A DNA stretch of 64,000 nucleotides, taken from IMG/VR virus record IMGVR_UViG_3300045988_029816; one strand, written 5' to 3'. Position numbers and translations under genes: made by a program. Shown here one piece after another: positions 3,891 to 60,197 of this stretch. Position 1 is the stretch's first letter. Every line of letters starts with the position of its first letter. Below the pieces are notes generated by a model. It was not told the origin of the DNA, did not search any database, and saw only the letters and a program-made list of their open reading frames with translations. Source of the stretch: a virus.

Positions 3891-3909
3891 GTCAGTTATA
3901 GCTAAAATT

Positions 3910-10152: not shown

Positions 10153-11908
10153 AGTGTGGACACCTAATGGTTATTAGGCTGGTCCGGTTAATAGTTTGGT
10201 CGGTAAAGGAGAGTCTATTATAGATTACACAAATGGTACCGGCACTCTTGTAACGAAGGGTAAAGTTGGGGTTGATAATTAGCCTAGCTCTGTTAGAAGA
10301 GATGATAATAATGTTATAGCTGGTAACGATATAGACTGGAGCAATGGAATGAAGTTTTCTGACCAAGTAGCCCCGTTGACAGCTAAGCTTTAGATGTATA
10401 ATGATATTGAAAAAAGAGCAGGTAAGAAATCCGATCTTAGCTCTTTATCAAAGTAGACGATTGAGCTTCAGAAAAATCAATTAGATCGCGCTAAAGCCCC
10501 TATTTTGCAAGCTATGAAGAATATTACAGATAGACAAGAGAAACAGCATTAGATCGAAGATTACGCAGCTTAGATTAAGCATAATTGCGGGAAAGATAGA
10601 TTTGATAAAGGAAAAAGTTTCTGGAAATCCTACACAACAGGCGGAAAAGGAAAGGTATCAAATCTTATGCTTGATACAGGTTATGCTTTACCAGCACTGC
10701 TTGAAACATAGATGCTTAATCATTGGCGTAGAGAAAACCCTGTAATGCCAAATATATATGCAGCTAATAGATATGCACCAATAGCTTTGCAGACAATGGC
10801 TGGTAATAGAGTATCAGCTAATCCTGTTCTTGAAAAATTATATGCACAAGATAGACAGGCTGCTTATTAGCTTGCTAATTCTGGTGGTTATACAGGTGGT
10901 CAGAGATAGGCTAATAGAGTAGCTTTAGCTTTAGGAAATTAGAGAAATGTTGCTGATGCACTCATGAATGTACAGGAAAAGAATGCTGCATATAGAAATG
11001 CTTATGCTGAGATGGCTGCCAGACTTGGTGATAGTGATGCACAGAGATTACAGCAGTCTAACCAATACGGATGGGAAGCTTACAATAGAGCACACGGTGC
11101 TAAGGCAAAGGGTATTGAAACACACTTATCTAATCTTGGTCTTATTGGTCAGAAATGGTTATCACAGCATATTAAAAACAAGCAGTATGGAGATATACTT
11201 GATATGTATCAGTAGGACATAGATAACAAGAAAGAAGCATTAAAAACAATATACGGTATAGGAGCAGATGGTAATAAAGGTACAACTGGTAATACTGGTA
11301 GTACAAACAATTCAAAAGGAAGTGGTGCAAATAATTCGTACATAAGGCCGACCGGATAGCCGTACGAAATGAATATGTACCAACGTAGCATTTAGCCGTA
11401 TGGAGATTGGTAGTAGAAGGCTATTTCTGACATTAGTAATTTACCATTGCCAAATTTACCATATTATCATACAAATTACTTAGATACAATAGATTGGGAT
11501 AAGTATTTTGAAGCTTAGAAAAAATGGAACAAAATTATTAAAGGTAACAATGGTATCCCTAAATCGTCTTAGTATATGTATTACGACAAATCTACTTCCA
11601 CACCGAATGATTATTTGTCTAATTTAATACCTCAAATGATACCAACTTTACCAGATAGTAGTAAATATATGCAAACGTATCAAAAGTACATGGGCATACC
11701 AATGGATCAATTAAGAAAAGATTATAGCAAATATCTTGGCGGCGATCTTTTTACAGAAAATTCTAAAGAACCACTTGGATTTACTAGAACAAGTGCACCT
11801 GGTAACAAAAAGACTATATCGAGATATGGGTTCCCAATTAATAGAGATCAAATGATCAGGGGTCTTCTGCTATATAATAATAATTTTAAAGTTCCATCTA
11901 TTAATTAA
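10136..11908 (+). CDS. Virion (cargo/tail) protein, unknown function, 590 aa
   Basis: ATG 10136 overlaps the previous gene's end. Frame 2 is open to TAA 11906-11908 with only TAG interruptions. It joins track ORFs 10964..11215 and 11576..11908. Confidence 0.55.
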
Positions 11909-11917
11909 TAATAAAGT

Positions 11918-13633
11918 ATGATAGGAATGTATGATGAGCCAGTAGCGGTGCCTATAATCGATCTACTGGATAGTAGCATGATGTCATAGTACATCAGTGC
12001 TGCAAGAGAACAATACAATTAGGCAGTATAGGACTAGAAGGAGTTCGCTAAAGAATTCGGTGAGTTATATGGGCCTAATGCTAATGTAAATAAAGAGTTT
12101 TACGATATCACAAGGGGAGCTGTTAACAAAGGATTAGATTACCTCTATTAGAACGGAATAGATCCTGTTAGATCAGCAGAAGGAAGAGCGTATATAGCCA
12201 AGATTATTAGAGAGAGACCATATGCAGAAATAGCTAACCTTAAAGCTCAGAATGAGTCAATGAAGACTTATTAGAGATATAGAGCAGAAGCTATGCGTAA
12301 TGGTACATATGATCCAGATTTTGAAAAATTTGTATTGGGTGGTAAGACATTGGAGTCTTGGGACCCATCTACAGACGGAATGTGGACAAGAGAAGCTCCA
12401 TCTAAGTATTCTAGCCTTAAGGACTGGACAAGTAATCTGTTTGATAACATGTAGCTTGAGTATGATGACGAGGCTACTAAGAAGACCGGAGGAATGTATC
12501 AAGTATATTCTAAATCTCCAAAGAAGATGCAGTAGATTCTTGATGCGAATATAAAGGATATGACAAAGTCTGATCTTGGTAGATACTATCTCAATATGTA
12601 TGGAGGTGATATAGATGCACTTAAGGCTGATATTATTAATCGTAATAGAGAATATACTCAGGTAGACAGACGAGCTGATCAGGTAAAAGTTCATCTCAAT
12701 GACCAGTAGTTCCAGGCTAATGAAGCTGCTAAGCAGAGAGCGTTCCAGCATAGCGAAAATGAGCTTAATAGGAAGAATTAGCGTGATATTGCCGCAGCTA
12801 GAGGCGCTAATAATGGTGCTTCCAAAAATGGCGGAGCAGATGGAGGATATAGCTATTCGTATACAAAGAAGGTAAAAAATGCCGAAACAGCAGCAGGGTT
12901 AAGAGATAGATCTGGAAAGCTTAATTCTAATTTGGATCCAGCAAAGGTTCAGAGTATGACAGAGCAGCAGCTTAAAGATTTAATAAGATTAAGATAGGGT
13001 GCGTTATCTAAAAGTGTGACCGGTCCAGTTACGGCAACAACTGTAATAAGACATTTATCTAGAACTGGAGACGATCCTGCAGTATTTGGAACAAGACACG
13101 GATTAACTGGTGTACCTGGTTCAAAATCTAAGAAGATTAATTATACCGTAAACGGCTCTACAACATTATATAGTGCCCAAGATATTTATAGTTCTATGAG
13201 TGGAAGAAGGGTTGCATGGAAACATAAAGGTACAAATATTGTTGATAAAAATGGTCGAATAATAAAGCTTAATGGTGGAGATAGATTTGAAAGACCAAAT
13301 AATGTAAAAAATCCTTCTAGAATAGAAGACTTTATTGGCGATCCTAACTACTCTGTTGTAATGCGTCCAACAGTAAATGGTGAAACAGTTAGCGTAGTTG
13401 GTAAAGATGGAAAACTTCATACTTATGACGCCGTCGATGTTTATATAGGAACTGGAAAAGGAAGCAATTATAAGGATTTAAATAGAACGCCGATTAGATC
13501 ATATGTGCCAGTTTCTGGAACAGATTTATCAGTTGATGAGTTAGGTATATCAGCTGACCACTTTATAGCAAAAAAGAACGGATATAAAACCACTAATACA
13601 ACAGTTGAAAATCCATCTGATTTTGATTATTAA
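11918..13633 (+). CDS. Virion (cargo/tail) protein, unknown function, 571 aa
   Basis: ATG 11918 to TAA 13631-13633 in frame 2 with only TAG interruptions. It includes track ORF 13016..13633. Confidence 0.55.
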
Positions 13634-13644: not shown

Positions 13645-16600
13645 ATGAATAGAAAATAGAGGGCTTATCAATAGTTTGTAAATAATCCTAAAGTTTCTTC
13701 GGATGAAGAATTCTAGAAATAGTTACAAGATATTGTAAAAAGCTATAGTACAGAAATAACTCCTGTATACACTACAAAACAGGACATTAGTAAAGAAAGA
13801 AAATAGATTAGATAGACACGTCAAAGACCCCAGCCATTACTCGTTCCTGAAGGTTGGGGAGCTTTGACTATTAACGAAGAGTCTGCTAATCCAGTAAAAA
13901 GATATTAGGATAGTAAGAAGCGTTCAGAAAATGCGACGGATACGAAATGGGTGACTCCTGATTAGAATGTAATTAAAAACTACAAGCTTGATAAAGTCCT
14001 CAAAAAGAATCCAGAATCAGAGTACGCAAAACTTACAGACCCAAGATATGTAAAGTCATTAATGGTAAATAACGACAGCCAAATGTATGGGCAAGTATAG
14101 ATATACGACCCAAAACATGATGCTGTAAGTACTTATTTGCCAGATGGGTCATTCGAGAAAAGGCAGTCTTTTTCAGAATGGTCTAACCAAAGATTAAAAG
14201 AACAAGGACAGCTAGAAGATAAGTTTGTTCAAAGTATGGGAGATGTAAATTATTTCCAAAGCGCATATAATACATTCCAGTAGAATAGAAATATGGCAGA
14301 AAGGGATTACTTTGCTGGTAATATACTTAGAACAAACGAAATGCTTTCTTACGCAAATGATGCTGAGTAGTACCTTAATAATTAGAGTAAAATAAATGAA
14401 TATTCTAATATTATGGATGCTGCAGATTTGTATCAGAAGGGGCAGAATAAAGAAGCTCTGCTTCCGTATTTGAAAAAACATGGACTTATATCATTGAATG
14501 GAAGTATAAATCCAAATAAACTTCAATAGATATTTGATGAATATAATGGGCTTAGAAAGTAGAATGAAAAGTTGTACAACAACTACAAAATATTGCAATC
14601 ATATGAACCTACTAATTCTGGTAGGATAGCCCAGGGTTTTGATAAACAAATATTCCATCCTATAGACAGAGCTATATAGTCAGCAGAAAGAGCTATTGGA
14701 ATGGGAGAGAAAAGTACATGGATCACCGATGATGTAGAAGGAACTAGATTTTATCTAGAAGGAATAGGTAATCCTAATACAACTCCTTAGCAAAAACTAT
14801 AGATGATTAGAAAATTTAAAAACTCTATAGCAAAAAGACAGGCTTATTGGCAAAATGGATACAAAGAAAATAATGCTGATGTAAAAAAGTACGAAAAAGG
14901 TATATCTGACAGATATAAATACGAAGATCAGAAATCTTAGGATGAAGGAATATTTAGTTTGCATAAACTAAAATATGGAACATGGGGAGTTCTTGGTTCA
15001 TCAATGTCTTCTTACGAAAAAACCATACCTTCATTAATTCTTGGATTCGCTGGAGCTGCTACTGGCAACTTGGCGATATCCGCAGGAACAGCACTGTTAG
15101 CAGGAGCTATCGATATGTCATAGGGCTATGATGAAAACTCTGGACAGATTGTTGGTGATTACAAAGCTTTGTTAGAGAAAAATCTTAACAATAATGGCCT
15201 TTCTGGCAAATTTATGAAGGAAGGAGCCGAGTTTGCAAAAGCTAATGGAATAAAATTAACACCAGGAAAAGAAAAAGAGGAATTATAGGATCTCCTTGTA
15301 TCTGGACAATGGAAGTTAAAAGATAAGGATTTGGTATCAGTCTCTTACGAATCTGCCAGAGGTATAAATAGCGACTTCTATGATGATATGATGGCTACGG
15401 CCGGAGATACATATGTAGGTATCGCTGTAAATGCTATCCCTTTTGGTAAGATAGCAAATCTTGGCAAATTTACAAAGATGTCTTCCAAATTTAAAGCTGG
15501 ATTGAGAAGTGCTATTGGTAGCGATAATTACAATGCAATAAAACATGCCTTAGATATATCTAAATTAAACACAGTTGGAGCCCAAAAAGGTTTTGAAGTT
15601 GGTATGGCTGCAGCAGGACCTGTAGGTGGAGTTGTTGGATCAGCTGCAGCAAAAACAGGTTTATATTCTGCTGGAAAATTTATTGGTAAAAATCTTGCCC
15701 CAGGTATGATTGCCGGTGGTGTAATTGGATCACAATTTGACGACGGTGATAGCCAGCTTGGAGCAACGATAGGAGTTGCTACAGGAGCTTTGCTTGGAGG
15801 CTTGTTTGGAGCAACTGGAGGCAGGGCGTATATGGCAAACAAATTAGGCTAGTTGGCAGAAAAGGTTACAACATTTGGCTAGGCATTACCTTCATCAATT
15901 TTAAAGATGACAGGCAAAATAAACGCAGATGTAATAAAGCGAAACTCAAAAGAGTTAATTGGTAGATTAGCTTTAAGAGATTTTTCCGAACGTGTAGAAG
16001 AGGGTAAACAGCAGTTGCATTCTGAACAATTTGTTAATGGATATTATCAAAACCATCCAGAGTATAGAGGATTTGTTGACAGATTAATGAACGACTTCCT
16101 TGTAGGCTCAAAAGCTTCGTATGCCACTATTGGTAGTTATATGAATTTGGATTTACTCGGGGACAGGGAATTGATGCAAAATATAAACTCTGTAATACTT
16201 GGCGGTGGCGGCCATGATGTAGCTACAAATATATTTGGATCTGCATATAGAACATCTAGATAGGTTACTGCTAATAATGTAATAGCCAGAAATCTTTACC
16301 TTGATAAAATTGGTACAAGAGATCTATACAGAACAGGTTTCCAGTACGCCAAGCGTGCATTAAGAGGTCCAAATAGATCAGCTGAAGCATTAGAGGCGTT
16401 CGATAAGATGATAGAATACTCTAATGAGTAGTCTAAAAAATTAGACCAGCTGCAAACTAGATATTCTGGTATGACTCAAGAACAACAGCAGTCGGAAGAA
16501 GGTGTACAACTCGCACAGCAGATTTATCAAGCTAAGCAATTCTTGGACCCAGAATTAATTTAGGATGCAAAGAAGTATTATTCAAGAGTATCTAGATTAG

Positions 16601-19600
16601 CTAATTCTAGGCTAATACAAGATGCTGCCAAGAAACAAGGAATAGAAACGAAGGATAGCTGGAAAAATAAGAAACAAAATGATAAGTTTGCAAAATTTGT
16701 TTCCCGTGTAGCGATGTATGACTAGCTTTCTGAAGATAACAAAAAAGAGAACATCGATCCGTTGGTAAACTCTATAAACGACTTGATGCAGCAAAGAGAA
16801 ATGCGCGTTATTATGTCTTAGTTTGATTCTAGTGACTTTACGTATGATGGCAGCATGGATCAATAGATGGGCGTAGATCTTGCATAGAACCGTAATCTTG
16901 TAACAGAGTCGCGTCGTAGACAGTAGGATCAAGAGGATGATAAAGTACAGGCTCGCAGAGATCTTATTAAAGCAAAAAGACAAGCTCTTGCACAGCTTTA
17001 TAGCGATATAGAAAAATCTGAAAAGAACTTTAATAACAGAAATGATATTGGATTTGTAAAAGCAGTTATAGGAGAGTTGATTGGAGAGGTTGAAGATTAG
17101 GCTGAAAAAGAAGCTGGAGAAAACCAAAGTGTAATAGACGAATATAACGAGTCGTTTTCTGACAACAAGAATCATACAGGGTTTACAGACCAGGAGTACA
17201 ATGACCTTAAAGATAAATTTAGACAGATGGCATTGTTTACCGTAGACTAGGTAAACTATGATAAAATGTTGGACAATCTTCTTGGTACATCGCATCTTAA
17301 AGACGAGGATACTCTTAAAAAGCAAATATAGGAGTACGAAGAAAATAAAAGAAAGAAGCACTTCTGGCAAAAGCAACAAGAGTCACCAGACTTGTTTGAA
17401 TATGATAGTCTTGGAAAGTTTAAAGATATCTTAGATAAGACTAATAAATTTTATGAGTCTAGAAAAGATTAGATCGAAGATGTTGACAGATCAATAGAGG
17501 ATGATAGAAAGCTTCAAGATGAAATTGAGTTAGACTTTTAGAGAAGGCTAATAGATGATACAGAAGAGGCCGAAGAAGCTGAAAGAAATGAGCAGATAGA
17601 TGCTTTAGCTGCTGCGAGAGCTGGACTTGAAGAAGAGCTCGGAATTAATGACGAGAAGCAAAATCAAAATGACGCCAATGCAGAAGAACCAGCTGCACCT
17701 GTTACAGAAGAAACTCCTACACCATCACCAGTTTAGGATAAAGAGGATAATATAGAACAGTAGCCTAAAGATGATACTGATAATAACCAAGAGTAGCCTA
17801 AAGATGATGCAAGTCAACCTCAATCAGAAGCTACAGAGCCATAGACTTCAGAGCCAGAGTCTCCAAAACCTTAGCCAAAATTTGAATAGTCTGAGGTAAG
17901 TAAGTAGGTTGGCGGTAGATTAAATAGCTATAAAGTATGGTGTGACAAACACGTAAAGAGAAACTTGACTACAAGTTCTCATTACTTTATAATAGACGAA
18001 GATGGTAAACTTCAGCTTGCTAGACGTGTTCATAGCACACTTGACAGCAGGGAGTCTGATACTAACGCTAATCTTATTTCTAGAAATAAATAGATACAAG
18101 ATTTTATTGAAAATCTCAACAAGATTACTACGTTAGAACAGCTTACAGAATATGTTAATAGCGTAGATGAGACCAAGAATATACAGGGTTATATAGATTA
18201 TCTGAAACAGGGTGAATTTAAAGATTACTTTGACGATGAAGTAAAATTCGGTATTGCTCACGAATTGGTTAATAAAGGAATCGGTACACCTGGTGATGTA
18301 GGAAATCTTATTGACTTTATATGTAGATCTTTCTTTGCCGGAGATCCGTTGTCATATGGTACAAATTTACAGATATTTGATGGAGAGGTTAGTAGTATAA
18401 GAGAGTTTATGAACGGCGATACGTTCAAATCTATAATATCTTAGCTAAAATCAATACAGGAATATTATAATTCTTTAGGATGGACTTTGTATACTCAGCC
18501 ATATACTTGGCACACATCTAGATTTGATTCAAAAACTGGTAAACGTGTTAATATTGCTGGAGAGACTGATATGATAGCAGTCGATCAAGACGGCGGTATT
18601 CATATTATAGATTTCAAAACGTCTAAGAAATCATTTACTCGCAAAAGTGGCGGAAAAACTGATCTTGAGAAAGTTGATCCAGGATACAGAACTAGCTGGA
18701 TTGGTTTTTATTCAGAGCAGTAGACTATGTATAAACTCATGATGCAGGATAACTCTCTTGAGTTTAATATAAAGTCTGTAGAATTACTGCCATTTAGCGT
18801 TAAGTGGAAGAAAGATGGAGATAGCTTTATTTTAAATAAAGTCACTAATGAGCCGAAGAGTAAATCTATACAAATAAACTTTAGTAATGATGTAGAAAAT
18901 AGATTTACAAAAGAGATAAATATAGATGAATTTAAGTAGGCTTATGATGCTGCTAGAGATTTAATGCTATCTACGTACAAAAAGGTTGTTACTGAATTAG
19001 ATACTATTGACAACTTGCCGTAGTCTTATAGAGGAGACTTAGAGAGAATATTTAATGATGCTCCAGATGCTATTACTGAGTTTGATAATACACAGGAGAT
19101 GCTTACTAAATTACAGGCTCACACATCTTAGATGAATGACGTTATAAATAGAATGAAGCAAATCCTGGAAGATGCCGAAGAATACGAAAGATAGGAAGCT
19201 GAAAAAGCTGAAGAATTAGCAAAAGCAGAGTAGAGAAGAAAGGCAGAAGAACGAAGAAATAATCCGAATTCAGAAGATTATGATGCAAAACAACAGATAT
19301 ATGCTGATATTGATAGAACTTTGGAAGCTATATCGGACATAGTATCATATGATTCTAATGGAGATCCTTAGGATTTGGCTCCAGATAAACAGGCCGAGCT
19401 TTCTAAACTTATGTCTGAACTTTATGAGATTGCTGTGCAGCTTAAAGATTTATCAATACTTCCAGAAGATATTGAAAAATAGAATGAAATATTTCAGACT
19501 GTATAGACAATAGAGGATGATTTCGGAATCACTAGAGACGAACACAATGTTGTAAAAAAATACAGTAAAGCTAAGATGAATCCGTTTAACAACCTTGACC

Positions 19601-22600
19601 AAAAACAGATAGATGAAGACGAAGACCTTGTTAAACTTTCTACAGAATCTGATTTCGTTACAAACTCTACATTTACATATAAGATAGGTGAATATACCGA
19701 TAAGCTTGGCGAAAAAAAGAAAACCGTATTTGTTGATATAGAATATAATGGAAAGGCTGGTAAAAAGTCATTTAATGATATGCGGGTATGGGTTTCTTCG
19801 TATTCACAAGATGGTAAACATTTGGCAAAAACATTATATGACTAGATTACTTAGCTTTAGGATAAATTAAAGCAAGGATATCGACTTGTTCCAGAGCGAG
19901 TAAATAGAACGAATGGTAGAACAAAAACGCTTAGATCTCAGCAGCAAAAGAACATTCTTGATACAGAGATATCTAAGACATTGGGAACAGATTTGTATAA
20001 GATAAAGTTCGACGGTAAATAGAATATTATTGGTATAGTTAAGAAAAATTCTACATCAGAAGGCTCTATACTTACAGTATTCGCTCCTAATACGTATGGA
20101 GATCTTACAAGAAGTATACAATCCTATCCTATTAATCAAGCGTTACATCAGGGAGATTTTGTTGTATTATATAGACCACAATACGATGAATTGAGTGGCT
20201 TTGAAGAAAGAGATCCTGTTCCTATTATAATGAGAACAAAACAAATATCATAGAAGGATGCAGATCTTGTTACTGATATACTACGCCAGATAACTCATGG
20301 AGAAATATCTCCTGCTCAATATTATTACGAAGGCGATAAAAATACCGGTTTGTCATACGGTCAAATTCTTAGTTTATTCTTCCCGTTTGGTGAAAACTTA
20401 CCAAATCATGGCAAGAACCTTATGTCTGTATATATTGATAAGGATAATCCTGCTAAGGTTATGATATCCATAAAAGAAAAGGATCCAAAAACAGGGTTGA
20501 AGCAACTAAAGCAGCATTATTATTCATACGACTTTTCTGATGATGAACAAATAAAGCAATTTAATAAAGATATACAAAAGTATAAAATTGCAGCTAGAGC
20601 CAACTTCTCTTAGCAAAACCTCGCAGAAAACGACGAGCTGTACAATCTTAAAGAATTCTTTGACAACAATCCTAATGAAGTATTACAATTTGGTGACTCT
20701 ATAAAATTTGAAGCTAGTGATTTTAAGAATCCTAAACAGTCTAATCAGAGTCTTGGTGGTCTAGCTTGGTATATAAAGAATAATGTTCTTACTACAGATT
20801 TTAATGGATTTGAGTCTTCTAAAATAAGTTTTGATGGAGTAAAAGTTGAAAAAATTGAAAAGGAATCAACAGAAGATGAAACGCCTATTGACGAGAGTAA
20901 GGAAATAGAAGATGCTGCGGACGACGAAAATAAAGATAATGACGCTGTAGACAATTGGTTTAATAATGATAATTAGGAAGTAGATTATGTAGCATGGAAC
21001 AATAGAACTCAAAGACATAGAAATTTTGAGTACGATACCGAAAGGGCTGCTAGAGAAATTCATAGACTGTTAGGAAGCGTTCGTTTAGACTTTGCAAAGA
21101 ACAGTAAAGGAGAAGATGATTTCGTAGCCATGCTTAGAGGTGGAGTTGGAGTAGTCGGAAGATGCTATGCAGACTCTATTATATTATCTAAATTTGCAGA
21201 CGAGGGTACAGAATATCATGAAGCATTCCACAGAATTGCTGAGATATTAATTCCGAAGAGATTACATGATAAGTTGTATAAAGAATTTAGAAAAAGACAT
21301 TCTAATACAATATTTACAGACAAACAGGTTAGTGAAGAATTAGCTGAAGGATTTAGAGTTTTCATGTTAAATAAGCCTAGATTACATTGGAGTTTCAATC
21401 TTGTAAAAATGTATAATAACATTAAAGACTATGTTCGTCAAGTAAGCAATATGAATATGGGATGGAAGTTATATACTGCTTACATGATAGCTAACTCTGG
21501 TATATTTAGATATGTAAAAGCAAGCAATAAACGAAAAGAAGAGTTTAAAAACGTATTCAAGTTTAAAAACGCAGAGAGCTCTTTGTTTAAGCGTGGTGGA
21601 AGATCGTTTAAATATGTGCTGAACCAACAGATGTATGATGAACTGGTAGACACACTTGTATACGCAGTACTTAATAATCAGAATTTTGATTGGGGTGGAT
21701 CTGATATACAAAATATAAGAGTTGATCTTGGCTATATAACAGGTAATGCTATTTCTGATGAGAAAAGGAAGAAACAGGCATAGGCGCTGTATAATGCAAT
21801 AGCCGCACCATAGGTTACAGTAGAACAGCTTGAATCAAAATTAGGAGAATCTAAATATAAGCAAAAAGCAGTTGGATTCCTGGCGATGAAAGAATTGTTA
21901 CAAGAAGATGTATACAATAATGTTGTGATGGACGATGTTGCCGCAAAGCTCTCTTCTATAGCTACGAATGCCACAAAGATAGCCGAAGAAGACAATGTTG
22001 TTGATGTAGAAGATGATCCAGATGCAGATAATGGTAATATTGGGGAACACACTAGGGCATCTTACGAATTCTCTAGATTTAGTAAGGCATCTCAAAGAGT
22101 TAAATTCTTCTTCTCTACATTTAGTAACTTTAGATGGGATACAAGATTTAAAGTTGATGAGAACAATCACGTAACATTCCAAAGAGTTCTTGTTGCAGAG
22201 AAGAATAGTCTTGGTATGCCTAAATTTATGGATGCAGGAATTGCTTTTAACAGAGTAATGAATTAGCTTCACGATATTTCTACAATACAAGATTTGTATG
22301 AAAAAGTATCATCTAGGGCTAATGATAATCCTATGTTTAAACAATTCAAAAAGAGACTCGATGTTCTTATAGAACAAGCTAAAACTGATCCTGATAAAGA
22401 AGCTCTTCTTGCTTAGATAAAGATGATCATAAAGTCAAATAAAAATACATTTATGATCTGTAAGGCTAACAGAAATCCTTAGAGTGGAAAGTACTCATTA
22501 AGTATACAGAGTTCAGATAGTGATTATTCTTCTATATATCATAAACAAAAGTGGTCCCAAATGTTCTCAAACGGTGGCGGTATGTCAATTCTTCACAAGA

Positions 22601-25600
22601 ATGATAAAGGCGAAACTGTTTTGAAAGATGGGCATAATGCCAGAGAGTTATATGATATAAAGAATTTCTTTACTGCTCCAATGGGTGAAAGAGGAAAGGT
22701 TAAGATAAATGGTAAGCTTGTTAAAGTTTATGGTTTATTTGAACATCTTGAAGACCCCAATCATAGACCGTTTACAATAAAGAATGTATGGAGGAGAAAA
22801 GATTCTAATGATCCAACAGATCTTCTCGTAGACTGTCGTAATGAGGGAGACTTTGTTGCTATTAAACAGGACTTTTGTAACCAATTACAAAAACTTGGTA
22901 TAAACTTCACTCTAAGCGAATTAGACTACATGCTCGAATAGAAGTATGGGTAGTCTGATGCTAATGCAATGAAGCAGTTGTTTGAAAGCTCTGTAGAATG
23001 GATTGATAGTAAAGATGGAGAAAAGAAAAAAGCAGGATTATTCGAAAGCTTTTATTCTACACTTGATAGCTTAATAAAACCATATTCTGGTAAAGTTGTA
23101 CTAAATATTAATCAGTAGTATATTGATAGAATTTGGGACAATGTTACTCTAACAAAAGAGTTGTCTAGATGGAAATATAATTATGAGCACTCTCAAGAAG
23201 AATTGTCTGTATTAGCTATAAATAATAACAAATACTACCAGATATCTGATAACAATTACATCTCTGATATGGTCGACAATCTTAATGGTGTACAATACCA
23301 CGAAGGATCATCAAAAGATGGATATATAATGGATTAGAGTGTAAGAAATCTTATTGAATACTCTTATAATTATATAGAAGACCCATAGTCTGCTCCAGAT
23401 CAAAAGAAAGGAATTGGAAGTATTATCGCAAAACAGATGGTTCAAAAAGATCATCCTAATATTAGTGTTAGAACACTCATTGGATTTAAAACTAATCAAG
23501 GACAAGATAGAGGTAGAGATTATTTTAAGATAACAAAGCGTGAAGACTACGTTGCTAAAATGACTATCATCTAGAAGGGGTATATAGTATTCCCTACTAT
23601 GTCTGATAAGAAGACGTGGGTATTCTTAGATGGAATTAAATTGCCTGGTATTAATTATAAAGAAGGTGCTGCGAAAAAGAATCTTCCAACAATATCAGCT
23701 ACAATGGTAGACGGTAAAGAGCAAATCAGCATAAGATTCCCAAATAATGTACTTGACTAGTTTAGAGAGTATGCTATGTGCGAATATAAGTCTATCAAAG
23801 AAGCTATAGACATGGACTTGAAACCAGAAGAAGTTATAGCAAACTTTGACAACAAAGATCAAGGTAAATATTTCTCTAGTCTTACTGGTGTTTATGATAA
23901 AGATGGTAATTTCATTTCTTTTGTAGATAAAGAGGCTGGATATGAGAAATCTCTTAAAATAGCCGAGGAAACATTCTTTGACCCAACAAAAGTTTCTAGG
24001 GATTAGCAAAGAGATATGATAAACGAACTTCTCGTAAGACAGACTTAGAAAGAGATAGAATACATGAAGAAACTTCACCTTGTATCTCAAAACAAATTAG
24101 GTCAGTATATTAACAAAGGTCTAGACACAATTACTATTGGTAATATCAAGAGTGCAATAAAGACGGGAAGACAAAACAACGCCATCACTGGTAACAGCGA
24201 TGCAATTTGGTGTCTTGCTGCCGATATCACAGCTAAGTCTATTATGTCTTTGCAGGAGGTAGAAAGAATCTTTAGTGGTAATCCAGCTTATTATAAATGG
24301 TAGTTTTCTGGCGCATCGCTTGTTGATAGATAGGTTGATGAGTTTAAACGATTTGGTGGTCTTATATCTACTGGTGATAACAATGTATTGGATTTCATTA
24401 ATTCCAAAGACGGTGAATATACATGTGCTGAAGTAGCTAACGAGCTAGTAAGTTCTCCTCAATATAATAAGCTTAAGTAGCTTATGACTGAAGGTGAATA
24501 CAAGTCTGCTCTTATAAACCTCGCTCAAGATGGATAGGTGCAGTTTACTCCAGATTAGATAGATGCCATGACGTTAGACGAGGTTAAACAACATATACCA
24601 GAAGATGTAAAAGATATTGTTGAAACAAAAATTGCTGCAGAAACTAAGTCTTACGAAAATGGTATTGATGTTGCCGATGGTGGAGCATATATTACTGCTA
24701 ATATGTGCGAAAACCTGCTTCGTATGAATGGAAAGTGGAGTAAGGATATAGAGAGGGCGTTTAAGATTCTTAAGTCATCAACAAAGGAGCATTTAACACC
24801 AAAAGAAATGTTATCTATAGCAGAAAATTATCAGAAGGTATTCACATCTGTTATTGGATGTTATAAGTATACAGCATTTGGATTAAGAAGACAAGATGTT
24901 AAGTCTAAAACTAAACCTTAGACAATAACAAGACTTGTGCCTTATTATAACAAAATGGCTCTTTTCCCAATATTTGACTGTATCGCTACTGGTAGAATGG
25001 CTGATATTTATCAGAAGATGAAAGCGTAGAACATAGATATGCTCATGATAAATTCAGCTGTAAAGGTTGGTAGTCAAGGTAGTCTTGGAGGCAAGGAAAC
25101 TGAGAGTAAAATAGACTTTGCAAGTGATAATATTAAGTTTAATACTTATAAACAGAAGTATCAATTCTTAAGAAAACAGCTTAACACAGATCCAGGAGAT
25201 AAAGATCTCTAGAACATGGGTACTCAGATGACTAAGATTGCTCTTAGTAATATCGTGTTAGGAAGAACGTATACGGTCAAAAATAACGATGGGTCATTTA
25301 CCACTAAGACTGGAGAATAGTTAAGAAATGATATCATGTCTGCGATAAATGATTTATCTAAACTTGGATATGACTCACTTCAGAATGAATTCTTTGATAA
25401 AGACGAAGATGGTAATATAAAGCTTAATGAGGAAAGATTTGCCAAATATTTGAGAAAATAGCTTACTGATAGAGATGCGGACAACAACTCAGTTGGAGCT
25501 CTTAATATAGTGTATACAAACTACGATGATGAAGGTAATCCTATAAAAGGTACAGAACAGATGGAAATACCTTTGGCTGCTACATCAAACTCAAACTGGA

Positions 25601-28600
25601 TAGAAAGTATTCTTACATCTAGTATTAACAAACGAGTTATAGATATAGCTACACCTGGTGCTCCATTTATTCAGAGATCAGTTTGGGGTATGGAAGGAAT
25701 GCCTACTAAGCTATTAGATAATCAAGTTCCTGGTATATTTAATGGCACGCTCAATCATGGTAATCGTCTTCAGATGATTAACGAAGAAGGTTCAATGGAC
25801 TGTATGTTGTCATTGGATTACTTTGTAGAATACTACGAGGACAAAAACGGCGAAGAGGTTATGTACTTTAGGCCTGCTGGCAAGAAGTGTAGACTCCAGG
25901 TATTTGATAAAGATACTAAAAAGTTTAGAAACATGTCCTTTACTGAAGCTAGAAAATGGCTTATCGATAACAAGGTTATTGGCTCTTCTTTTGATTATAC
26001 AGATAAAGACGGAAATAAAGTTCATAAAAATGGAGCTAGTGCTAACATTATTGGTTACCGTATTCCTACACAGGCTCAGTCGTCTATACATGCTTTAAGG
26101 TGTGTTGATGTATTACCTGTTGTTAGAGATACTGTTGTGCTTCCGGAGGAGTTTACAAAGATAACCGGTTCTGACTTCGATATTGATAAACTTTTCTTAA
26201 GTTGTAAACCTTACAATTATTATAAGGATAAGGATGATCATAATAAAAGGAAAGTTAATTTTGATTTTGAAGAAGGATCTGAGTAGGATTTATAGGCAAA
26301 ACTTATGGATGGATATATGTCGTTATTACTTGATTGGAAAAACGAAGACGACAAGGATTCTAGAACATGTAACATACTTCATAGGTCTATTGATAACGAT
26401 ACGTCTCTTGTTAAAGCTAAAGGCGCATCATATTTAGGCTTTAATGTACTTTCCGACATAGAGTAGAATCTTGATAAAGAACAAGTTGTAATGCCATACG
26501 ATTTCTATACTCCTAGAAATCAAGTAGAGACTAAAGATACGTTCTTAACAGGTAAAACTGGTATTGGTCCGTTTGCGTTGAATAATAACAGTTAGATTCT
26601 TACTATGCTTTATGATGTTAAGTTTACACAGAAAGTAGGTACTATTATGAAAGACCTTGGTCTTGATAGACTTGGTAGAACCCTTGATAGAAATCAGCAG
26701 AATATATTGTCTTGGCTGTCTGCTATGATTAATGCTCATGTTGATATTGCTAAGGATCCATACATTACTAGATTAAATGTAAACCCTTATACATACAATC
26801 TTGTAAACCTACTTCTTAGAGTCGGTCTTGGAGAGGATACATTCTATTTTACAACTCAAGGCATCATGAAGGATTTGGCTTTTGCGTACAACGATTCTGT
26901 TAGTACGTATATGGCTGATGACAGTAAGACACCTTGGTAGAGACGCAGAGATGCTGAAAACGATGTTCTTAAGAAGTATTTCTCAGAAGAGCCAGAAGTT
27001 GATAATGATCTTAATTGCATACCTAGTATAATGGAGGAAATACAGAAAGGTTTTGATGATATTCCTACAGCTTTAGAGCAAGACTATATAATTAGGTAGA
27101 TTTTAGGAGAATTCTAGAAAGATGGTAAATGGATACGAGGCTATATTGACGCAGAAGGCAACGAACATTTAGTTGATGTTAAGAACAAGGTTAGAAATTC
27201 TATAATTAGAGAGATGTCTATAAATTAGAATCCTAACAAAAAGGGATACATAAACCAAACGTCAACTAAGAAGATGTTTACAGTAATGTCTAGAGATGGT
27301 AAGGAAATAAAATTATCACCATTGGATGTTACAAGGTGGATATTTATAGCTAATAAGAGGTTCGAAAAGCCTGGTGATGCATTGGCAAATCTTGTTAAAT
27401 ATTCTAAGATAGACACAAAGAAACAAGGTAAAAATATAGCTGAGCAAGATGCTTATCTTAAGGGATATAATGATACTTATAATCCTGGAGGATAGACATA
27501 CTAGCAGTTTGAGCCTACAAGTTTATCTGCGTTAAAAGACGGTTCATATATAGGAAAAAAGACTAAGTATGCTACAGATTTATATAGAGACATAGTAGGA
27601 CAGCAGCTCCTTTCTTCTTGTATGGCTGTGTTTGGAACCAGAAATAAAGAAGGTAAGAGAATGAAGGATGGTATATTGCCTCAAATACTTAAAGCAATAA
27701 ACAGAAAAGATGGAGCAGTTCCAGCTGACCTTCTTAACAAGATTATGATACAGATAACATCTTGTATTAAGTCAGAGTTCTTTAACAATTATTGTGATGA
27801 AAACGATATAAATATTCACGACTTATTCTCTGGAGACAATACGATTTATGATAGATTGCTTGATCTTTAGATTAAGGCCGAATCTGATCCAAATTATTCT
27901 TACCTTAAAAACAATCTGCTTTTGAAGGTTCTCGTTCCAACTTTAAATACTGAAGACGGTCCTAATAAAATAGAACACGATCAGATAGAATTACTTAATA
28001 CGTTTGGAGAAAGAGAGGGTACATACGAAAAACCAAAGTTTGTAAAGTTCTTTAATTCAATGGATGATGATAGTAAGAATTCTAACTACGTATACGAAGC
28101 TTGGGAAAGATTACTTGAAGACACAGATGAAACTGTAAAGAATTTTGCTAGAGATTTGGTTGTATATTCGTTCTATTCGTCTGGAGATATGTCTGGTTTC
28201 TCTAAGTTCTTTAAGTACGTTCCAAATAGTTGGAGACTTAATTCTGGATATGTTGATTTCGTAAGAACTAAACTTAAGGACTTAAATACAAGAATACCAT
28301 CTCCTGTTTATATATAGAATATGGTTGATGATATAATTTTAAATAACTGGTTCGATAATGATTTTGTAAAAGAGTATCGCCCTAGTTAGCTTATTGGAGT
28401 AGTTGGACAAAATACAATAACCTATAATCCTCACGCGAAGCCAGAAGATATGATTAGTATGTATGCTAAGTATGAAGGTTATTAGAAAAAGGTTTTAACG
28501 AACAACTCTGGAGAAGCTATTAATATGTTTGGTATATTATCTCCATTTGATCATGCTGCCCCTAATATAGCATGCGGCTTAGCTGTAAGAAATGGAAAAT

Positions 28601-29250
28601 ATCAATCAACTATTGATTATCAGCATCCACCTAGATTTATAAAGGTGTCTAGAAATAACATGAAGAAAGGACAATCTCAACACGATTACACCATCTATAT
28701 GCATTATGCTACTGGAGAAAAACGTATTCAGAATAGTAATGGCGAATATGAAGCTATACGTTATCCAATTTACGTTAAAGTAAATCCTAAAGGATATAAA
28801 AACGGAATATATAACATTACGGAATTCGGAACACCAAACTCAGTAGACAATGTATTTGGTATACAAAGTAGAGATGCTGCACAAAAATCATGGAAAGATA
28901 TAGAGCCTACTGCTTTTGACCAAGAGATTAATAAGGTTAAAATTGAGCAAGGTAAGCCTACTATATCAAGAGTAAGTGATGTTGAAAATATCGATAGAAT
29001 ATTAATAGGTACAGAGAACGGTAAGATTCTTCCTCCTTTAGGAAGCGAATATTATAGAATATTTGACGATCAAGGAGAGCGTGAATGGAGTTCAAGCGTT
29101 CCTGGCATGTACAACTATGGAGAAGGTGACGAGAAGGGATCATTACTTGAAGACTTGTTTAACTTTAAAGATTCTCAATTAAATAAAAAAGATACTAAAG
29201 GTAAAACGTTAGCAAATCTAGATGATCTAGATGATAAATTAGGATGCTAA
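13645..29250 (+). CDS. Giant polyvalent virion protein (5201 aa) containing the crAss-type two-barrel virion RNA polymerase, a PD-(D/E)XK nuclease-like motif, an HExxH metallopeptidase motif and a glycine-zipper segment
   Basis: Frame 1 was read codon by codon from ATG 13645 to TAA 29248-29250; only TAG interrupts it, and it joins more than 15 track ORFs. Catalytic-like 'IIGYRIPTQAQSSIHAL...ITGSDFDIDKLF' (DFDID at 26173-26187) parallels beta-prime 'NRAPTLHRLGIQAF...NADFDGDQM'. 'VDQDGGIHIIDFKTSK' lies at about 18583-18618. HEAFH lies at 21217-21231. A Gly-zipper lies at about 15590-15830. Confidence 0.8.
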
Positions 29251-29265: not shown

Positions 29266-32200
29266 ATGGTTTGTATAATAAGAAGTAAATATTAGAACGA
29301 GCTAAAACAACTATCAGGTATATTGGGCGGTGAGAAAGCCGCCCACTATGCTTTATGTATGAATAATGGGTACAATCTTACTGATACCAAAGAAGGTAAG
29401 CATTCTAAATTATTCGATTAGCTCAAAGAAAAATACGGAGAAGATGAGGCCATAAGGATGAAAACTTATACTTTCACTCCGTAGTTCACAGATTAGTTTT
29501 GTGATTGGTATAATGATAATATAAACAAAAATAACGAAATTATAAAAAATGCTACAGTTATATGGGGGCATCCAGGAACTGGTAAGACATGGCTTTTCAA
29601 ATAGGGTAGAAAAGATATAATAGATTTTGATTCTGAATATAAATCAAAATTAGGAAATCTAGAATAGAGAGAAAAGCTTAAGAAAGAAATTGGAAAGCAA
29701 GAATACAACAAAAAACTTGATTAGTTATTTGATTAGGCAAAACAAGAGGCTAAAGAAACCGGTAAGAAACTTCTTGTTAGTGATATGCATTTTCTTAGAG
29801 ATAGAGCAGATGATCTCGATGCTATAACAAATATTTCCGATAAAGAATTTATTCAAAGAAGTCATTAGAGAGGAGAGCATGATGAAGCAGATAAAATGGA
29901 TTGGAAGAAATCCATAAATAAAGCAATGTCAAACGCTCCTAAAGATAAAATAATTAACACAACTGGATATATATCAAATCTTTTAGATGAATCTGAAATA
30001 AATAAAATAGACGAAAACGGAGAACCTAAAATAGAATATGTAGAAAAATTATATAACGAGTATAATGATGGTAATTTTAGTGATTCAATAACATTTTCAA
30101 CCCTTGGATACGAATCGAACTTGCAAAAGATGAAGCAGGCTATGCAAGATGAGGGAGATGCAATAGATTCAGCTGTACAGCAATCTATAAATACTTCTGT
30201 AAAAAATATTGCTATTAAGCCAGGAGAGTCTTTAATACATTTTTTCAAAAGAAAGAACGTTATTAAAGGTAAACTTATTACTGATAGAGTAAACCAGATA
30301 ATGTAGAAAAGACAACAAGTTTTAGCTTAGCATTATGGTTTAAAATAGGTAGTAAAAGATGATGGTTCTATAGAATATTCTACTGATAGCAAAGATACAG
30401 ATAAGCAAATTCTTGTTAAGTTTGTAAATAGTCTTGGTGATAAACGCGGAATGTATAGAGAAGCAGAACATACTTTGTACATCTCTCTTATAAATGCTGA
30501 TCCGACAACTATGAATCACGAATTAGCTCACTATTATGTAAGAACATTCTGGTAGAGTAAGGAAGTATAGAAAGCTTTGTCTATATTTGATGATAAGAAA
30601 CTTAGTTCTAGATAGCTTGAGGAAAGATTAGTGGAGGAGATAACATCACGTACAATGGCTGAAAACTTCTCTACAGAGCCACAAAAGCGGTCTATAATAC
30701 AATAGTTCTGGAACAGCTTTAAAAGCCTCTTAAATCGCCTTATTTTGGGCAAAATGACCGAATCTAAGAAGAATGATATACTTGACTCTATAGCAGCTAA
30801 CTTTTACTTGAATAAATAGCTAGAATAGGACTACAAGTCAATGGCTTTCTACGATAAGTATAATGGCGATATGTTTTAGCAGGGCGATATACCAAATGCT
30901 AATGACTTAAAGGTATATGAAACTATATCAACAGCCGTTAAGCGTAGATATTCTGCAGAGCGTGCTCAAAAGGCAAAAGATACTATAAAGATATAGACTC
31001 TTAGAGCAAAAATAAAAGAGTACCAAGAAGATATTGATTTAGGATTCTTTGGAGAACGTGTAACCAGAAGTACAGATGAGCAGCAAGAGAAAATAACATC
31101 TAACGTAGAATGGATTCTAGATTAGGCTAGACGAGAATTAAATGTACTTGGAAGACATTTATCAGACAATAGAGCAGGTGTAGAATAGATGACAGCAAAA
31201 TAGTTATTCGACGCACTTACAAACGTTGTTGGATATTATGAATATATATTTAATAATAAGCAGTACGGAATATTCTAGTCTTTAGGAAAATATGGCAATA
31301 GTGGTATAATAGAATTTAAAAACGGTAGCACTTTGTATCAGGCTTTTCAAGAAGCAAAAATAGATTTGGATTCTATACATGAAGAGCTTAATACTTAGAT
31401 AAAAGAATATCTTGGAAAGCGATTATATAATTTCGTATAGGATAATGTAACAATTGGAGACAAAGATGTATTTTACCAGAATGTTATGCATTGGTTATAC
31501 AATGAAATAGACAATGGCTCATTAAATGCATTCGAAAAGTATGTTGGTATAGCTTCTAGCTCAAAGTCTTAGTTAATTAGAATTGTTGATAATATGATTC
31601 AATCAGTCAAGAATGAGAAAAGAAGAAACGCTCTTACTGTTGGTCATGAATTTGTCAGCAAAATGAACAAGTTAGCTGGTCATTCTGTTTCTAATTATTA
31701 GGCTAGATTTTGTGAGACTGATTCTGATGGGAAAACTACCGGTTATTGGATAAGGCCAATAAACTACGGTCAGTATTATAAAGAGAAAAAACAATTCGTT
31801 ATCAATCTTGCAAAAAAGCTCGGGTTGAATCCGGATTCAAAAACAGGTAGAGTTGATTTGTCTAACGTTGATACAAAAACAAAAAGAGATTTCTTAAACA
31901 GCATTGAAGACTGGGTTGGAGAACATGCACACAGAAGATATAAGGCTGAATATTATAAAAAGAAGAGAGAGTTTTTGTCAGATGACACAATGAGGACAAT
32001 GGGCGCAATACAAAGACAAATAAATGTCCTGTTGTCTAAATAGTATGATGAAGATGGATATTTTATGCCTTACAGATTAGGAAAATCTGATAGAGATTTA
32101 CTTGAAAGACTTTAGAGAGAAAAATAGTAGTTATCTAACTTTTATGATAGAATAGAAGTTTCTTCTGGCGAAGTTAAAATAGTTCCTAAGACAGGCGATG

Positions 32201-35200
32201 CTTTACGTATGGCTGAAGAAATTCATGCGTGGTACAATTATATTAATGGGAAAATAAAATACAAGCCTAATGTAGAAAAATACAATGCTGGATTAAAAAA
32301 GCTACAAGATTAGTTATAGAATGCAAGTTCTTCGTCAGAAAAGTTAAAGATACAAAAACGTATAAAAAGCTACGTATATTATAATAGTAAATTGTAGTAT
32401 ACGGAAGACTTCTAGAACCTTTTGAACGAATGTCATTCTGGTGAACAGGATAAGAGACTGGCTATACTGTAGGAGAGAAGGAGAAAACTGCTCATACCAG
32501 CTAAAGATGTCAATGACGCATTAGCTTCTCCAGACTTACAGAATTTGACTATTGAAGACTTAAAATAGATACAGTATCTTGATGAGTAGATATCTAGAAG
32601 AAAGCTTATAATAGAAAATAATTATGAAACATTAAAGTCAAAAGAAGAGAGCGGCACACTAACTCCTGCAGAAAGAAAGTGTCTTGATAAGTTAGAAAAG
32701 TCAAAGGAAGAACCATCTTGCGATTTTAATGATATAGCAGCAATGGATGAAGTTAAGGTTCGTGGAACGGAAACTACTATGTACGATTGGTGGGAAAACA
32801 AGCTTAAAAACGAAGGTTGGAGCCAGTAGGAGATTACTGATTTACTGTGGTACACAGATAGAAAAACTGGAGAATCTAGAGTATTAAGCTGCTTTTTTAG
32901 AATGGTCCCAAAAGTTGATGAAAATAGTGAGGATGAATTAACGTTACCGAATGGTAGAAAAATAAAGGTATTAGAAAGAGTTCCAGGCAACGCTTATTCT
33001 GAATTAGATGAGACTTCCGAGTTGGCTGATGAAGAGTATGATAAGACATCAAATGAAACAATGCAGCCTAAAAAGAATGGTATATATAATGGTAAGACAT
33101 TCTCGTACGAAAACAAGTAGTATAATAAGCTTACAGAGGAAGAAAAGGATTTCTTAAATAACTATATTATTAAGAAATTGATGTGGGGCTCTAATGAAAA
33201 AATAGCAGGTAAAGTATCAGCTAAATCATATAGAATGCCACAAATACATGGAAATTCTGTAGAAATGATGTGGGGTAGAGGATTTGGGCCACTTGGTATA
33301 GCAAAGTCAATAGGATATGCTGCTGGGCAATTTTCTTAGATAAACGAAACTGATACAGAATTCGATATGTCTATGTCTGACGACTTAGCTATGAGACCAG
33401 ACGGAACAAAGGTTGGTGTTATTCCTATTAGATATGTAAAGACGCTTGATGACCCAGAACATATTTCTACAGATATTATAGGATCTGTAATGTCTTACTG
33501 GATGATGGCAGAAAATTTTAGACTTGTGTCATAGTTAACACCTGATTTGGAATTGATTCACGATTCTGTAAATAACGGTACAACTACAGATACAGCAAAA
33601 GTTATTAGAGAAATGATAGATACATATATGTATGACAAACATACAAAGTTAAATGAAAACTCTAATAAGAAAATGTCTAAATCTGCACAGAGATTAATAA
33701 AGTCTGCAGATACAATTAGAAAGAATACATCTAGAACACTTTTGTCTCACAACTACTTTACTATTATGAAGGGATTCCTTGATGCTAGTAAGACGGTTGG
33801 AATTGAAGCTCTTACAGGTAAGTATATAACAGCCAAGGATATGGCTTACGCTCATAGTTATATAGCTAGATCTTTAGGGACTATTGCTGCAAGCGTTGGA
33901 AAACCAAACGTTCATGGTTGGCTAGCAGCAGCAATGCAGTATAATGGTTGTACGAAGAGTATAGACGAATCATTTAGCCATACACAAAATACTTGGGCTA
34001 CGAAGTTTCTTAGAGACAATCTGTTAATGGGAGGTTATACGGTAACCGACTTTATGGTTACAGGTATGATATGTGCTTCAGTGTATCATCATTTTAGGCT
34101 AGTACATGTCCCAATAGTAGAAAAAGTAGACAAATCAAAAATCCTATATAATGCAGAGTACAAAGTTACTGGATGGGAGGATAGATTTGTAAACCAAGAA
34201 GAAGCTATGGATTTGTATTATAAAGCCGGACTTGGTGATTAGGCTGGTATGAAAAACTATGAAAATGCAAAAATAACTTTGCATGATGCTTATATTGAGG
34301 AGAATAGCAATTTCGTAATTCGTGATGAATTTAAAGATAAAGTTAGCAAGCGTCTTGAAGATATAGTGTCTAACACTATAAAAGAAAGATCAGCCGTAGC
34401 AAATGGTATGATGCCAGAGAATGGAAGACACTCTGTAGCATATACAAATCCATTTGCAAGATGGATAATGGTAATGCGTGGATATCTTCCTACTCTTGGA
34501 TTTGATAGATTTAAAGCTGGTAGTGACTTCTCTGAATATAAGTCAGATAAATATAACCCTACTTCTTTTAATGCTATAAAATACAAAAGAAATAATGGCG
34601 AGATGTCTGATGAAGAGTTTGAGAGAGCTAGAGAGTACTATGAGAGATATGATGGTTAGTTCAATTTTAACACCGCTACAGTTGATAGAGGTCAAGTAAG
34701 GGCTACTATAACAGCATTACGAAAGACAATAAATAATGCGCTTTAGTTAGCAAAGCATCTAATTACGTTTGATTTCAATGCTATCAAAAATGATAAAGGC
34801 AGAAGAAGTAAAACTTATAACGAAAAGAAGATGTTGTTAAAGTCTGCCTTAGAAATAGGCTTTATTGCGGCTATGGGCATATTGTCAGTATTTACTGCAT
34901 AGATGATATAGGATCTTGATGATGACGATGATGATACTGTACAGTATGCAACATATGCAATAGCGTTATTAAATCAGGGATTATTAACAGAGTCTTCTAC
35001 TGCGTGGGTTCCAAACACCGTATTAGACTTGTTTACATCTCCTACTACGGTTTATGCATATTTATAGAGATACGCATATTTTGGAAATATTGTAGGATAG
35101 TTAGCATATTTAGGTTTAACTACTATATCTGATGAAGATGACGCTTCTTACTATGAAGATGTTCTTGGCAAGAATTCGTCTTATGCTGGTCGAACAAAAT

Positions 35201-39612: not shown

Positions 39613-39626
39613 AACTTATAAGTTAG

Positions 39627-60196: not shown

Positions 60197-60197
60197 A

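Follow-up and report, generated by a model that had tools for sequence, protein, structure and literature searches.

We identify a single 15.6-kb open reading frame (ORF) within a 64,000-nucleotide stretch of viral DNA (IMG/VR virus record IMGVR_UViG_3300045988_029816; this whole stretch is referred to here as the window), and conclude that it is very probably the virion RNA polymerase (RNAP) gene of a Suoliviridae phage, in which a pair of proteins encoded apart in crAss001-like (Kehishuvirus) phages have been fused. As judged from its homologies, the giant ORF is a gp47-type protein and a gp50/gp66-type polymerase in one chain, joined near amino acids (aa) 2680–2850. The predicted protein has a mass of 594 kDa and an isoelectric point of 5.5, and can be divided as follows:

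13645..29250 (+): giant ORF, fusion of a gp47-type cargo module and a virion RNAP (26 long homologues, NC_055899.1)
15022..15825 (+): glycine-zipper, moderately hydrophobic cluster (aa 460–727), candidate membrane-interacting segment
17446..17889 (+): acidic, Pro-rich low-complexity linker (aa ~1268–1415), poorly conserved, with acidic windows at aa 1268–1334
17890..18972 (+): RecB/Cas4-like PD-(D/E)XK nuclease domain (aa 1416–1776), from Pfam, invariant residues and AlphaFold2 (AF2)/Foldseek
19612..20844 (+): conserved region (aa ~1990–2400), then acidic linker (aa 2394–2450)
20992..21690 (+): conserved HEXXH...E domain (aa ~2450–2682), from motif conservation; equivalent to the C-terminal end of gp47-type proteins
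21742..28854 (+): virion RNAP module (aa ~2700–5070), homologous to phi14:2 gp66 and crAss001-type gp50
26056..26187 (+): catalytic double-psi beta-barrel (DPBB) loop YRIPTQAQSSIHAL ... TGSDFDID, aligned to the gp66 catalytic loop

Using phmmer, we found the giant protein to be colinear with 26 long homologues over aa ~200–5070. A hidden Markov model (HMM) of 17 giants matched Kehishuvirus gp47-like (independent E values of 5e-35 and 1e-27) and gp50-like (5e-14) sequences. These matches fall in order along the model, and we therefore interpret the giant as a gp47-type plus gp50/gp66-type fusion. Unfiltered phmmer aligned aa 1437–1750 and 2505–2623 of the giant with residues 1605–1890 and 2137–2251 of gp47, and aa 3632–4415 with residues 1024–1805 of gp50 (residue correspondences are from these pairwise alignments; positions mapped linearly from the HMM deviate by as much as ~150 residues). 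By the same sequence criteria, aa ~200–2680 are colinear with gp47-type proteins. The Kehishuvirus gp47-type protein (2310 aa) carries a PD-(D/E)XK domain followed by HEAFH (at 2157), in the same order as the giant, the gp50-type polymerase (2412 aa) has DFDVD at 1483, and the gp49-type protein (1349 aa) matches the ORF downstream of the giant gene. In Kehishuvirus, however, these are three separate genes, with gp49 and gp50 on the strand opposite gp47, whereas gp47 and gp50 are fused in the window. Comparison with phi14:2 gp66 and the crAss001-type RNAP-block proteins, which the initial annotation of this DNA had proposed as a check, returned polymerase, gp47-like and gp49-like matches.

The assignment of aa ~2700–5070 as a two-barrel virion RNAP of the phi14:2 gp66 type, with its predicted DFDID loop intact, is strongly supported. 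A profile (A1) built from aa 3560–4700 and 21 metagenomic homologues matched the gp66 structure (PDB 6VR4) at E = 7.2e-66, in four colinear pieces that span gp66 residues ~695–2177, and the TAG-free segment aa 3940–4213 alone matched it at E = 4e-9; phmmer of aa 2801–5201 against the PDB missed 6VR4, whereas the profile and the TAG-free segment did match. The giant also matched the Kehishuvirus gp50-like protein directly (phmmer, E = 7e-16). The initial annotation had placed a crAss-type virion RNAP near 26.1 kb and its metal-binding loop at 26173–26187; both hold, and the position of DFDID (aa 4177–4181) is exact. In the search with the TAG-free segment, ‘IGYRIPTQAQSS...TGSDFDIDK’ aligned with gp66 ‘IGYRIPNQGQSS...TGSDFDIDK’, and GYRIP.Q.QSS...TGSDFDIDK matches the gp66 loop residue for residue. 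The upstream part of the loop, YRIPTQAQSSIHAL, occupies aa 4138–4151, and both DFDID and the preceding R-I-P-x-Q loop are kept in the A1 consensus. DFDID is found at position 1361 in gp66 (2180 aa) and at position 4177 in the giant (5201 aa), from which the polymerase module was placed at roughly aa 2700–5070. Mg-dependent RNA synthesis and virion packaging have been shown for phi14:2 gp66, and each Asp of DFDID is needed for its activity (bioRxiv 10.1101/2020.03.07.982082).

Phage phi14:2 shares with the window a two-barrel single-chain RNAP, the identical DFDID motif with its flanking loop, and a gene order of g067 (1797 aa), g066 (RNAP) and g065 (1421 aa, ‘RNAP-associated’), followed by opposite-strand genes; g065–g067 are annotated as virion proteins from tandem mass spectrometry. 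It differs in that gp66 is a stand-alone protein of 2180 aa, g067, g066 and g065 being separate and colinear, and in that gp67 (1797 aa) is without the HEXXH motif.

Some relatives depart from the giant at the catalytic motif. Homologues P0077–P0080, P0086, P0087 and P0130 (3947–4369 aa) have their C terminus exactly at the DFDID position (giant aa 4177–4182), and in NC_055902.1 (cr131_1; 59915–61848) the DFDID region is divided over three coding sequences (CDSs), with roughly 700 extra bases. In some genomes, the gene therefore seems to be broken at the catalytic motif, possibly through an intron, an intein or a further recoding event. Zeta-group phages have been reported to show disruptions at their DxDxD motif. 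The window’s giant gene is uninterrupted at DFDID.

The window has 97–99.7% nucleotide identity to RefSeq NC_055899.1, crAss-like phage cr124_1 (Burzaovirus faecalis, Oafivirinae, Suoliviridae, Crassvirales), from human faeces in Ireland; by this measure the phage is a strain of Burzaovirus faecalis, and thus a Suoliviridae (delta-group crAss-like) phage. The reference record is linearised inside the giant gene, with the same 55 bp present at both ends (window positions 21343–21397). Because of this linearisation, annotation covers just the final 2626 codons (YP_010113076.1, called ‘DNA helicase’); in the first 7.7 kb of the gene, the sole annotated feature is a spurious antisense CDS (KNV57_gp09, record 96732–97310). 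Sister genomes label the giant orthologue ‘DprA-like’, ‘nuclear pore complex protein-like’ or ‘exonuclease V’.

A break inside the giant gene of a same-species record might be read as a sign that an assembly join, or a chimera of two genes, produced the long frame, but the break is the linearisation point of a circular assembly, and the window crosses it uninterrupted at 99.7% identity. Once circularised with the 55-bp overlap removed, this independent assembly likewise shows the giant frame (5198 codons, 100 TAG, TAA stop). Moreover, independent metagenome fragments (P0023, P0022, P0034 and P0072) span aa ~1049–2700, and divergent giants are colinear across the same point. We consider a chimera scarcely credible, and reject it on the strength of the independent assembly and the colinear divergent giants.

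Comparison of the two strains also bears on how the gene evolves. In the giant gene, 166 codons differ between the window and cr124_1, comprising 123 synonymous and 38 non-synonymous differences and 5 that involve TAG (TAG/CAG in 4 of the 5). The excess of synonymous over non-synonymous changes suggests purifying selection. Divergence between the strains rises around ten-fold within the gene, at ~25500–29250 (aa ~3950–5201): 39 of the first 3949 codons differ (1.0%), as compared with 127 of the last 1248 (10.2%), 105 of them synonymous. This jump looks like a between-strain recombination breakpoint inside the polymerase module.

The frame itself begins with ATG at 13645 and runs for 5201 sense codons to TAA at 29248–29250; the closest in-frame stop upstream is TGA at 13624–13626. 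As the initial annotation had read it, the frame is broken by TAG alone: we counted 98 in-frame TAG codons, the first at codon 5, and no internal TAA or TGA. Base composition predicts ~316 TAA/TGA in this frame (P(none) ~1e-142), the other two frames of 13645–29250 contain 209 and 610, and across 50 shuffled versions of the window the longest stretch without TAA/TGA had 205 codons. The three codon positions have GC contents of 0.44, 0.32 and 0.28.

We interpret TAG in the giant ORF as a sense codon that is decoded as Gln, because of the four TAG/CAG swaps between strains and a tRNA(CUA) in the reference genome; codon counts are 98 for TAG, 116 for CAA and 89 for CAG. The tRNA, which has anticodon CTA, was found by a tRNA scan of the reference genome at NC_055899.1 47896–47967, at the head of the late block; no tRNA(CUA) was found within the 64-kb window. 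RefSeq names the tRNA at 47896–47967 tRNA-Gln, and ARAGORN names it ‘Pyl’ (anticodon cta). The genetic code of the window is split by strand: plus-strand late ORFs (1–35.5 kb) have 1–98 in-frame TAG each, and minus-strand ORFs at 35.5–64 kb have almost none. Late-gene TAG-to-Gln recoding is already known in these phages (PMC7886860; PMC10136315), and metaproteomics confirmed it in a Suoliviridae phage (PMC10136315).

The same observations bear on whether the frame is instead expressed as several polypeptides (a gp47-like protein and an RNAP, as in Steigviridae) through partial termination at TAG or internal starts. The orthologous modules are separate genes in Steigviridae, and the 3947–4369-aa homologues that end exactly at DFDID make piecewise expression possible in some genomes. 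Against this stand the absence of TAA/TGA across all 5201 codons, the TAG/CAG swaps together with the reference tRNA(CUA), the metaproteomic confirmation and the position of the first TAG, at codon 5. TAG codons also fall inside folded, conserved domains; three lie in the nuclease domain, whose TAG-as-Gln translation was modelled with a mean predicted local distance difference test score (pLDDT) of 85. Furthermore, the junction between the gp47 and RNAP parts is open in more than 15 divergent clusters. We therefore reject TAG as a stop in the giant frame, and regard division of the frame into several polypeptides as improbable.

Within the gp47-type half, aa 1416–1776 are supported as a predicted PD-(D/E)XK nuclease with a complete catalytic set, in line with the ‘D...IIDFK’ motif noted near 18.6 kb from inspection of the letters (IIDFK is aa 1654–1658, nucleotides 18604–18618). 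The isolated domain matched Pfam PDDEXK_1 with 23.7 bits (cut-off, 22), and scored 20.1 bits, under the cut-off, within a 1500-aa chunk; 15 of 17 homologous domain copies matched the family (best E = 6e-7). Residues D1642, D1656-x-K1658 and Q1692xxxY1696 are invariant in the homologue alignment (A4). An exhaustive HMMER search with the domain recovered 73 relatives, nearly all in proteins of 3947–6939 aa (at positions ~1300–2000) or in gp47-type proteins of 2150–2830 aa. A word-indexed homologue search with aa 1416–2800 had returned just two near-identical fragments, because low-complexity words swamped the candidates. For structure modelling and exhaustive searches, the inputs were the TAG-free stretch aa 2445–2712 and a substring of metagenome protein P0023. 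The AF2 nuclease model (pLDDT 85, predicted TM-score 0.83) matched AdnA, Cas4 SSO0001, ACE1, AddAB and Exo5 in the PDB (Foldseek, E = 5e-4 to 4e-3, probability 0.85–1.00, and 0.98–1.00 for the first four), with low TM-scores of 0.2–0.36 that we attribute to helical insertions. The best BFVD matches were crAss-like proteins already labelled PD-(D/E)XK (E = 8e-17), and a PDDEXK domain has been noted previously in some large transcription-block proteins (Yutin et al. 2021).

The HEXXH domain, which lies just upstream of the cargo–polymerase join in Suoliviridae, is best regarded as a conserved candidate metallopeptidase. Its motif, HEAFH, occupies aa 2525–2529 (nucleotides 21217–21231) and is laid out as GTxYHEAFH (H2525, E2526 and H2529), ~34–35 aa, and then E2564-E-L-A-E2568-x-F-R. 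Alignments of 6 and 51 sequences show H2525, E2526, H2529, E2564 and E2568 as invariant or conserved to at least 90%, and the pattern G..L..A..GT.YHEA.H with E..AE.FR is kept across Suoliviridae and Steigviridae. In a tblastn search with aa 1–2800, the HEXXH region alone was conserved, in 27 Crassvirales records; in those for which the annotation was inspected, it lies in an RNAP-block gene. The HEXXH...E layout fits the gluzincin pattern described for the metallopeptidases (MPTases) of polyvalent proteins (PMC5512222). Directly after the HEXXH domain, 8 of 51 relatives (P0045–P0048, P0053, P0059, P0062 and P0066) carry an ART-PolyVal ADP-ribosyltransferase domain (Pfam PF18760, E down to 1e-21), a module absent from the window’s giant.

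Nearer the N terminus, the glycine-zipper hydrophobic segment that had been noticed near 15.6–15.8 kb proved to be part of a real motif cluster, as 15 of the 22 [GAS]xxxGxxx[GAS] motifs of the giant fall within aa 463–726 (nucleotides ~15.0–15.8 kb); 10.5 ± 3.4 GxxxG-type motifs would be expected in the whole protein. Hydrophobic peaks occur at aa 460–492, 649–670 and 703–727 (Kyte–Doolittle 1.39, 1.19 and 1.58). No homology of the segment to any characterised channel former was found. The surrounding region (aa ~200–1100) is weakly conserved among giants, with weak colinear similarity to that of cr113_1. It is followed by a conservation trough at aa 1000–1400 (relative to the 26 long homologues), and aa ~1990–2400 are conserved in 17–23 of these 26, without a match in Pfam and PHROG searches.

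By analogy with crAss001, phi14:2 and N4, translation of the giant gene would wait until late infection, when the phage tRNA(CUA) makes its 98 TAGs readable. The ~594-kDa product would be packed as capsid cargo together with the downstream gp49-like protein, and the chain extruded, partly unfolded, through the tail before or with the DNA, after which the polymerase module would transcribe the standard-code minus-strand genes at 35.5–64 kb. In crAss001, gp47, gp49 and gp50 were found in virions by mass spectrometry and are thought to be extruded partly unfolded (PMC10172136), and the virion RNAP (vRNAP) of coliphage N4 is injected and transcribes early genes (PMC5512222; PMC13434306). More speculatively, the N-terminal glycine-zipper segments may engage the envelope, the nuclease may act on host or competitor DNA, and the HEXXH domain may cut the giant chain, or other cargo, into working units. 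We infer that the giant may be processed proteolytically and inserted into membranes, as the initial annotation had proposed. With a predicted nuclease, HEXXH domain and RNAP in one late-block ORF, and with its delivery presumed, the giant would answer to the description of a polyvalent protein (Iyer et al. 2017).

Several points weigh against this interpretation of the giant as a delivered, multifunctional single chain. Its packaging, ejection and single-chain status are proposed by analogy only, and internal translation starts would be compatible with the sequence. Four overlapping chunks of the giant protein had zero matches in PHROGs and, in Pfam, the sub-threshold PDDEXK_1 match alone, leaving ~90% of the length without a match. 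The similarity of phi14:2 gp67 to the N-terminal half is one of gene order, with no detectable sequence similarity, and the Kyte–Doolittle peaks of the glycine-zipper cluster are modest (1.2–1.6). For the HEXXH domain, the coordinates and the conserved HEXXH...E residues of the earlier metallopeptidase-like assignment stand, but family and fold matches were lacking: profiles of 6 or 51 sequences had zero matches in Pfam and the PDB, and alignment to the HEXXH region of N4 vRNAP with hhalign placed HEXXH on HEXXH at a non-significant probability of 2%. The AF2 model of the domain has a mean pLDDT of 49.8 with no sheet predicted; it puts HEXXH and the downstream Glu on helices (pLDDT 74–82), and Foldseek with this poor model returned nothing below E = 1.8, with matches that are noise.

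What the HEXXH domain does can be read in two ways. It is possible, although we think it somewhat unlikely, that GTxYHEAFH...EELAExFR defines an undescribed zincin-like peptidase clade common to all Crassvirales gp47-type cargo; such a peptidase would split the ~594-kDa precursor, either within the capsid or once ejected, releasing the RNAP from a membrane/nuclease module. If true, this would be the third independent coupling of a virion RNAP to a HEXXH domain, after N4 and P23-45. Like the giant, N4 vRNAP (gp50, 3500 aa), the archetype of phage polyvalent proteins, is a giant virion polymerase fused to a HEXXH domain; however, its polymerase is T7-like rather than two-barrel, and its HEXXH domain is C-terminal to the polymerase. 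Thermus phage P23-45 gp96 (5002 aa) is of similar size and, as described in bioRxiv 10.1101/2022.12.01.518664, combines a two-barrel vRNAP with metallopeptidase and membrane domains. It is likened here by description, and differs in its opposite domain order (N-terminal vRNAP) and in being the tape-measure protein of a long-tailed phage.

The main rival to self-processing by the HEXXH domain is intact delivery, as for N4 vRNAP: the giant would be packaged and ejected without ever being processed, the HEXXH domain would bind metal in a structural role, help in encapsidation or docking, or act as an effector on proteins of the host, and the N-terminal half would serve mainly as an ejectosome or conduit scaffold, keeping the polymerase tethered where the phage enters. 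We regard this as a serious possibility that falls short of an even chance. N4 vRNAP, with its HEXXH/MPTase domain, is packaged unprocessed, and the region is needed for encapsidation (PMC5512222; PMC13434306); the zincin fold was not recovered from the HEXXH model. Furthermore, the same domain stands at the C terminus of the separate gp47-type protein in crAss001-like phages, and therefore its conserved or ancestral role would not be cleavage of the gp47–RNAP junction. Conversely, the invariance of H, E, H and two downstream Glu residues at ~25% identity is the pattern of an active gluzincin site, and the ART-PolyVal domain of the 8 relatives recreates an architecture for which MPTase processing has been proposed (PMC5512222).

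Each element of the initial annotation’s domain assignment was borne out as far as its ‘-like’ terms go. The initial annotation had also placed the gene at the extreme end for phage genes, which did not hold. Giant RNAP genes (4,300–6,900 codons) are a known hallmark of this human-gut crAss-like family and are not exceptional; a 2023 review gives RNAP genes of ‘up to ~6000 aa’ as a hallmark of these phages (PMC10136315). We rejected a unique size for the giant gene, given the single CDSs of 4328–5801 aa annotated in seven other Suoliviridae genomes, each with HEXXH and DFDxD regions:

cr113_1: 4328 aa (YP_010112838.1)
cr118_1: 4946 aa (QOR58373.1)
cr130_1 (same subfamily): 5801 aa (YP_010113266.1)
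cr50_1: 4774 aa
cr6_1: 4400 aa
cr10_1: 4460 aa
cr56_1: 4461 aa

Metagenomic relatives reach 6939 aa, with at least 15 clusters (50% identity) of 5179–6939 aa that have the nuclease at ~1300–2000 and DFDxD at ~4180–4640; a strict YHE[AS]xH motif occurs at ~2400–2900 in 9 of 15. Suoliviridae giants share the arrangement of small cargo ORFs, giant, a partner of 1400–2000 aa and then opposite-strand replication genes, as well as the order HEXXH then DFDxD, and the cr113_1 giant is also TAG-recoded. They differ in that the N-terminal ~2460 aa of the window’s giant have diverged beyond the reach of tblastn, even inside its own subfamily, and no counterpart of aa 1150–2304, the nuclease included, could be detected in the cr113_1 giant.

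Conceptually, there is nothing here to surprise specialists, since both this kind of protein and, in essence, its sequence were known before. Its practical value is mainly for annotation, as the RefSeq record splits the gene, misnames half of it and leaves 7.7 kb unannotated; the map offered here comprises a glycine-zipper region, a RecB/Cas4-like nuclease, a conserved HEXXH domain and a gp66-type polymerase. Beyond the correction of public annotation, the remaining interest lies in the undescribed HEXXH domain, and the giant is a natural test case for the processing of crassvirus cargo and for the passage of a ~600-kDa chain through a podovirus tail.

The giant gene lies in a transcription block, beside a gp65/gp49-type partner, and the block abuts opposite-strand replication genes. 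The neighbouring late ORFs are:

9415..13633 (+): three TAG-recoded upstream ORFs (245, 590 and 571 aa), in the position of the crAss001 small cargo genes gp45 and gp46
29266..35472 (+): downstream partner ORF (2068 aa, 50 TAG), ‘RNAP-associated’ homologue of crAss001-type gp49, and of phi14:2 gp65 by synteny

A two-sequence HMM of the 2068-aa ORF matched Kehishuvirus gp49-like protein (E = 5e-18, colinear). The cargo roles of crAss001 gp45 and gp46 are described in PMC10172136. RefSeq labels the 245-aa ORF (9415–10152, +) ‘glycine zipper domain’, and the glycine-rich part of this ORF matches the Kehishuvirus gp45-type cargo protein in its transmembrane region (E = 4e-5); on the basis of this label and match, a second predicted glycine-zipper protein would be encoded just upstream of the giant gene.

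Among the early genes, minus-strand tRNAs were found at 39626–39796 (−) and 58390–58464 (−), comprising two tandem tRNA-Val(GAC) and one tRNA-Met. Overlapping ARAGORN calls of ‘tRNA-Cys(aca)’ and ‘tmRNA*’ at 55735–56098 (−) look spurious.

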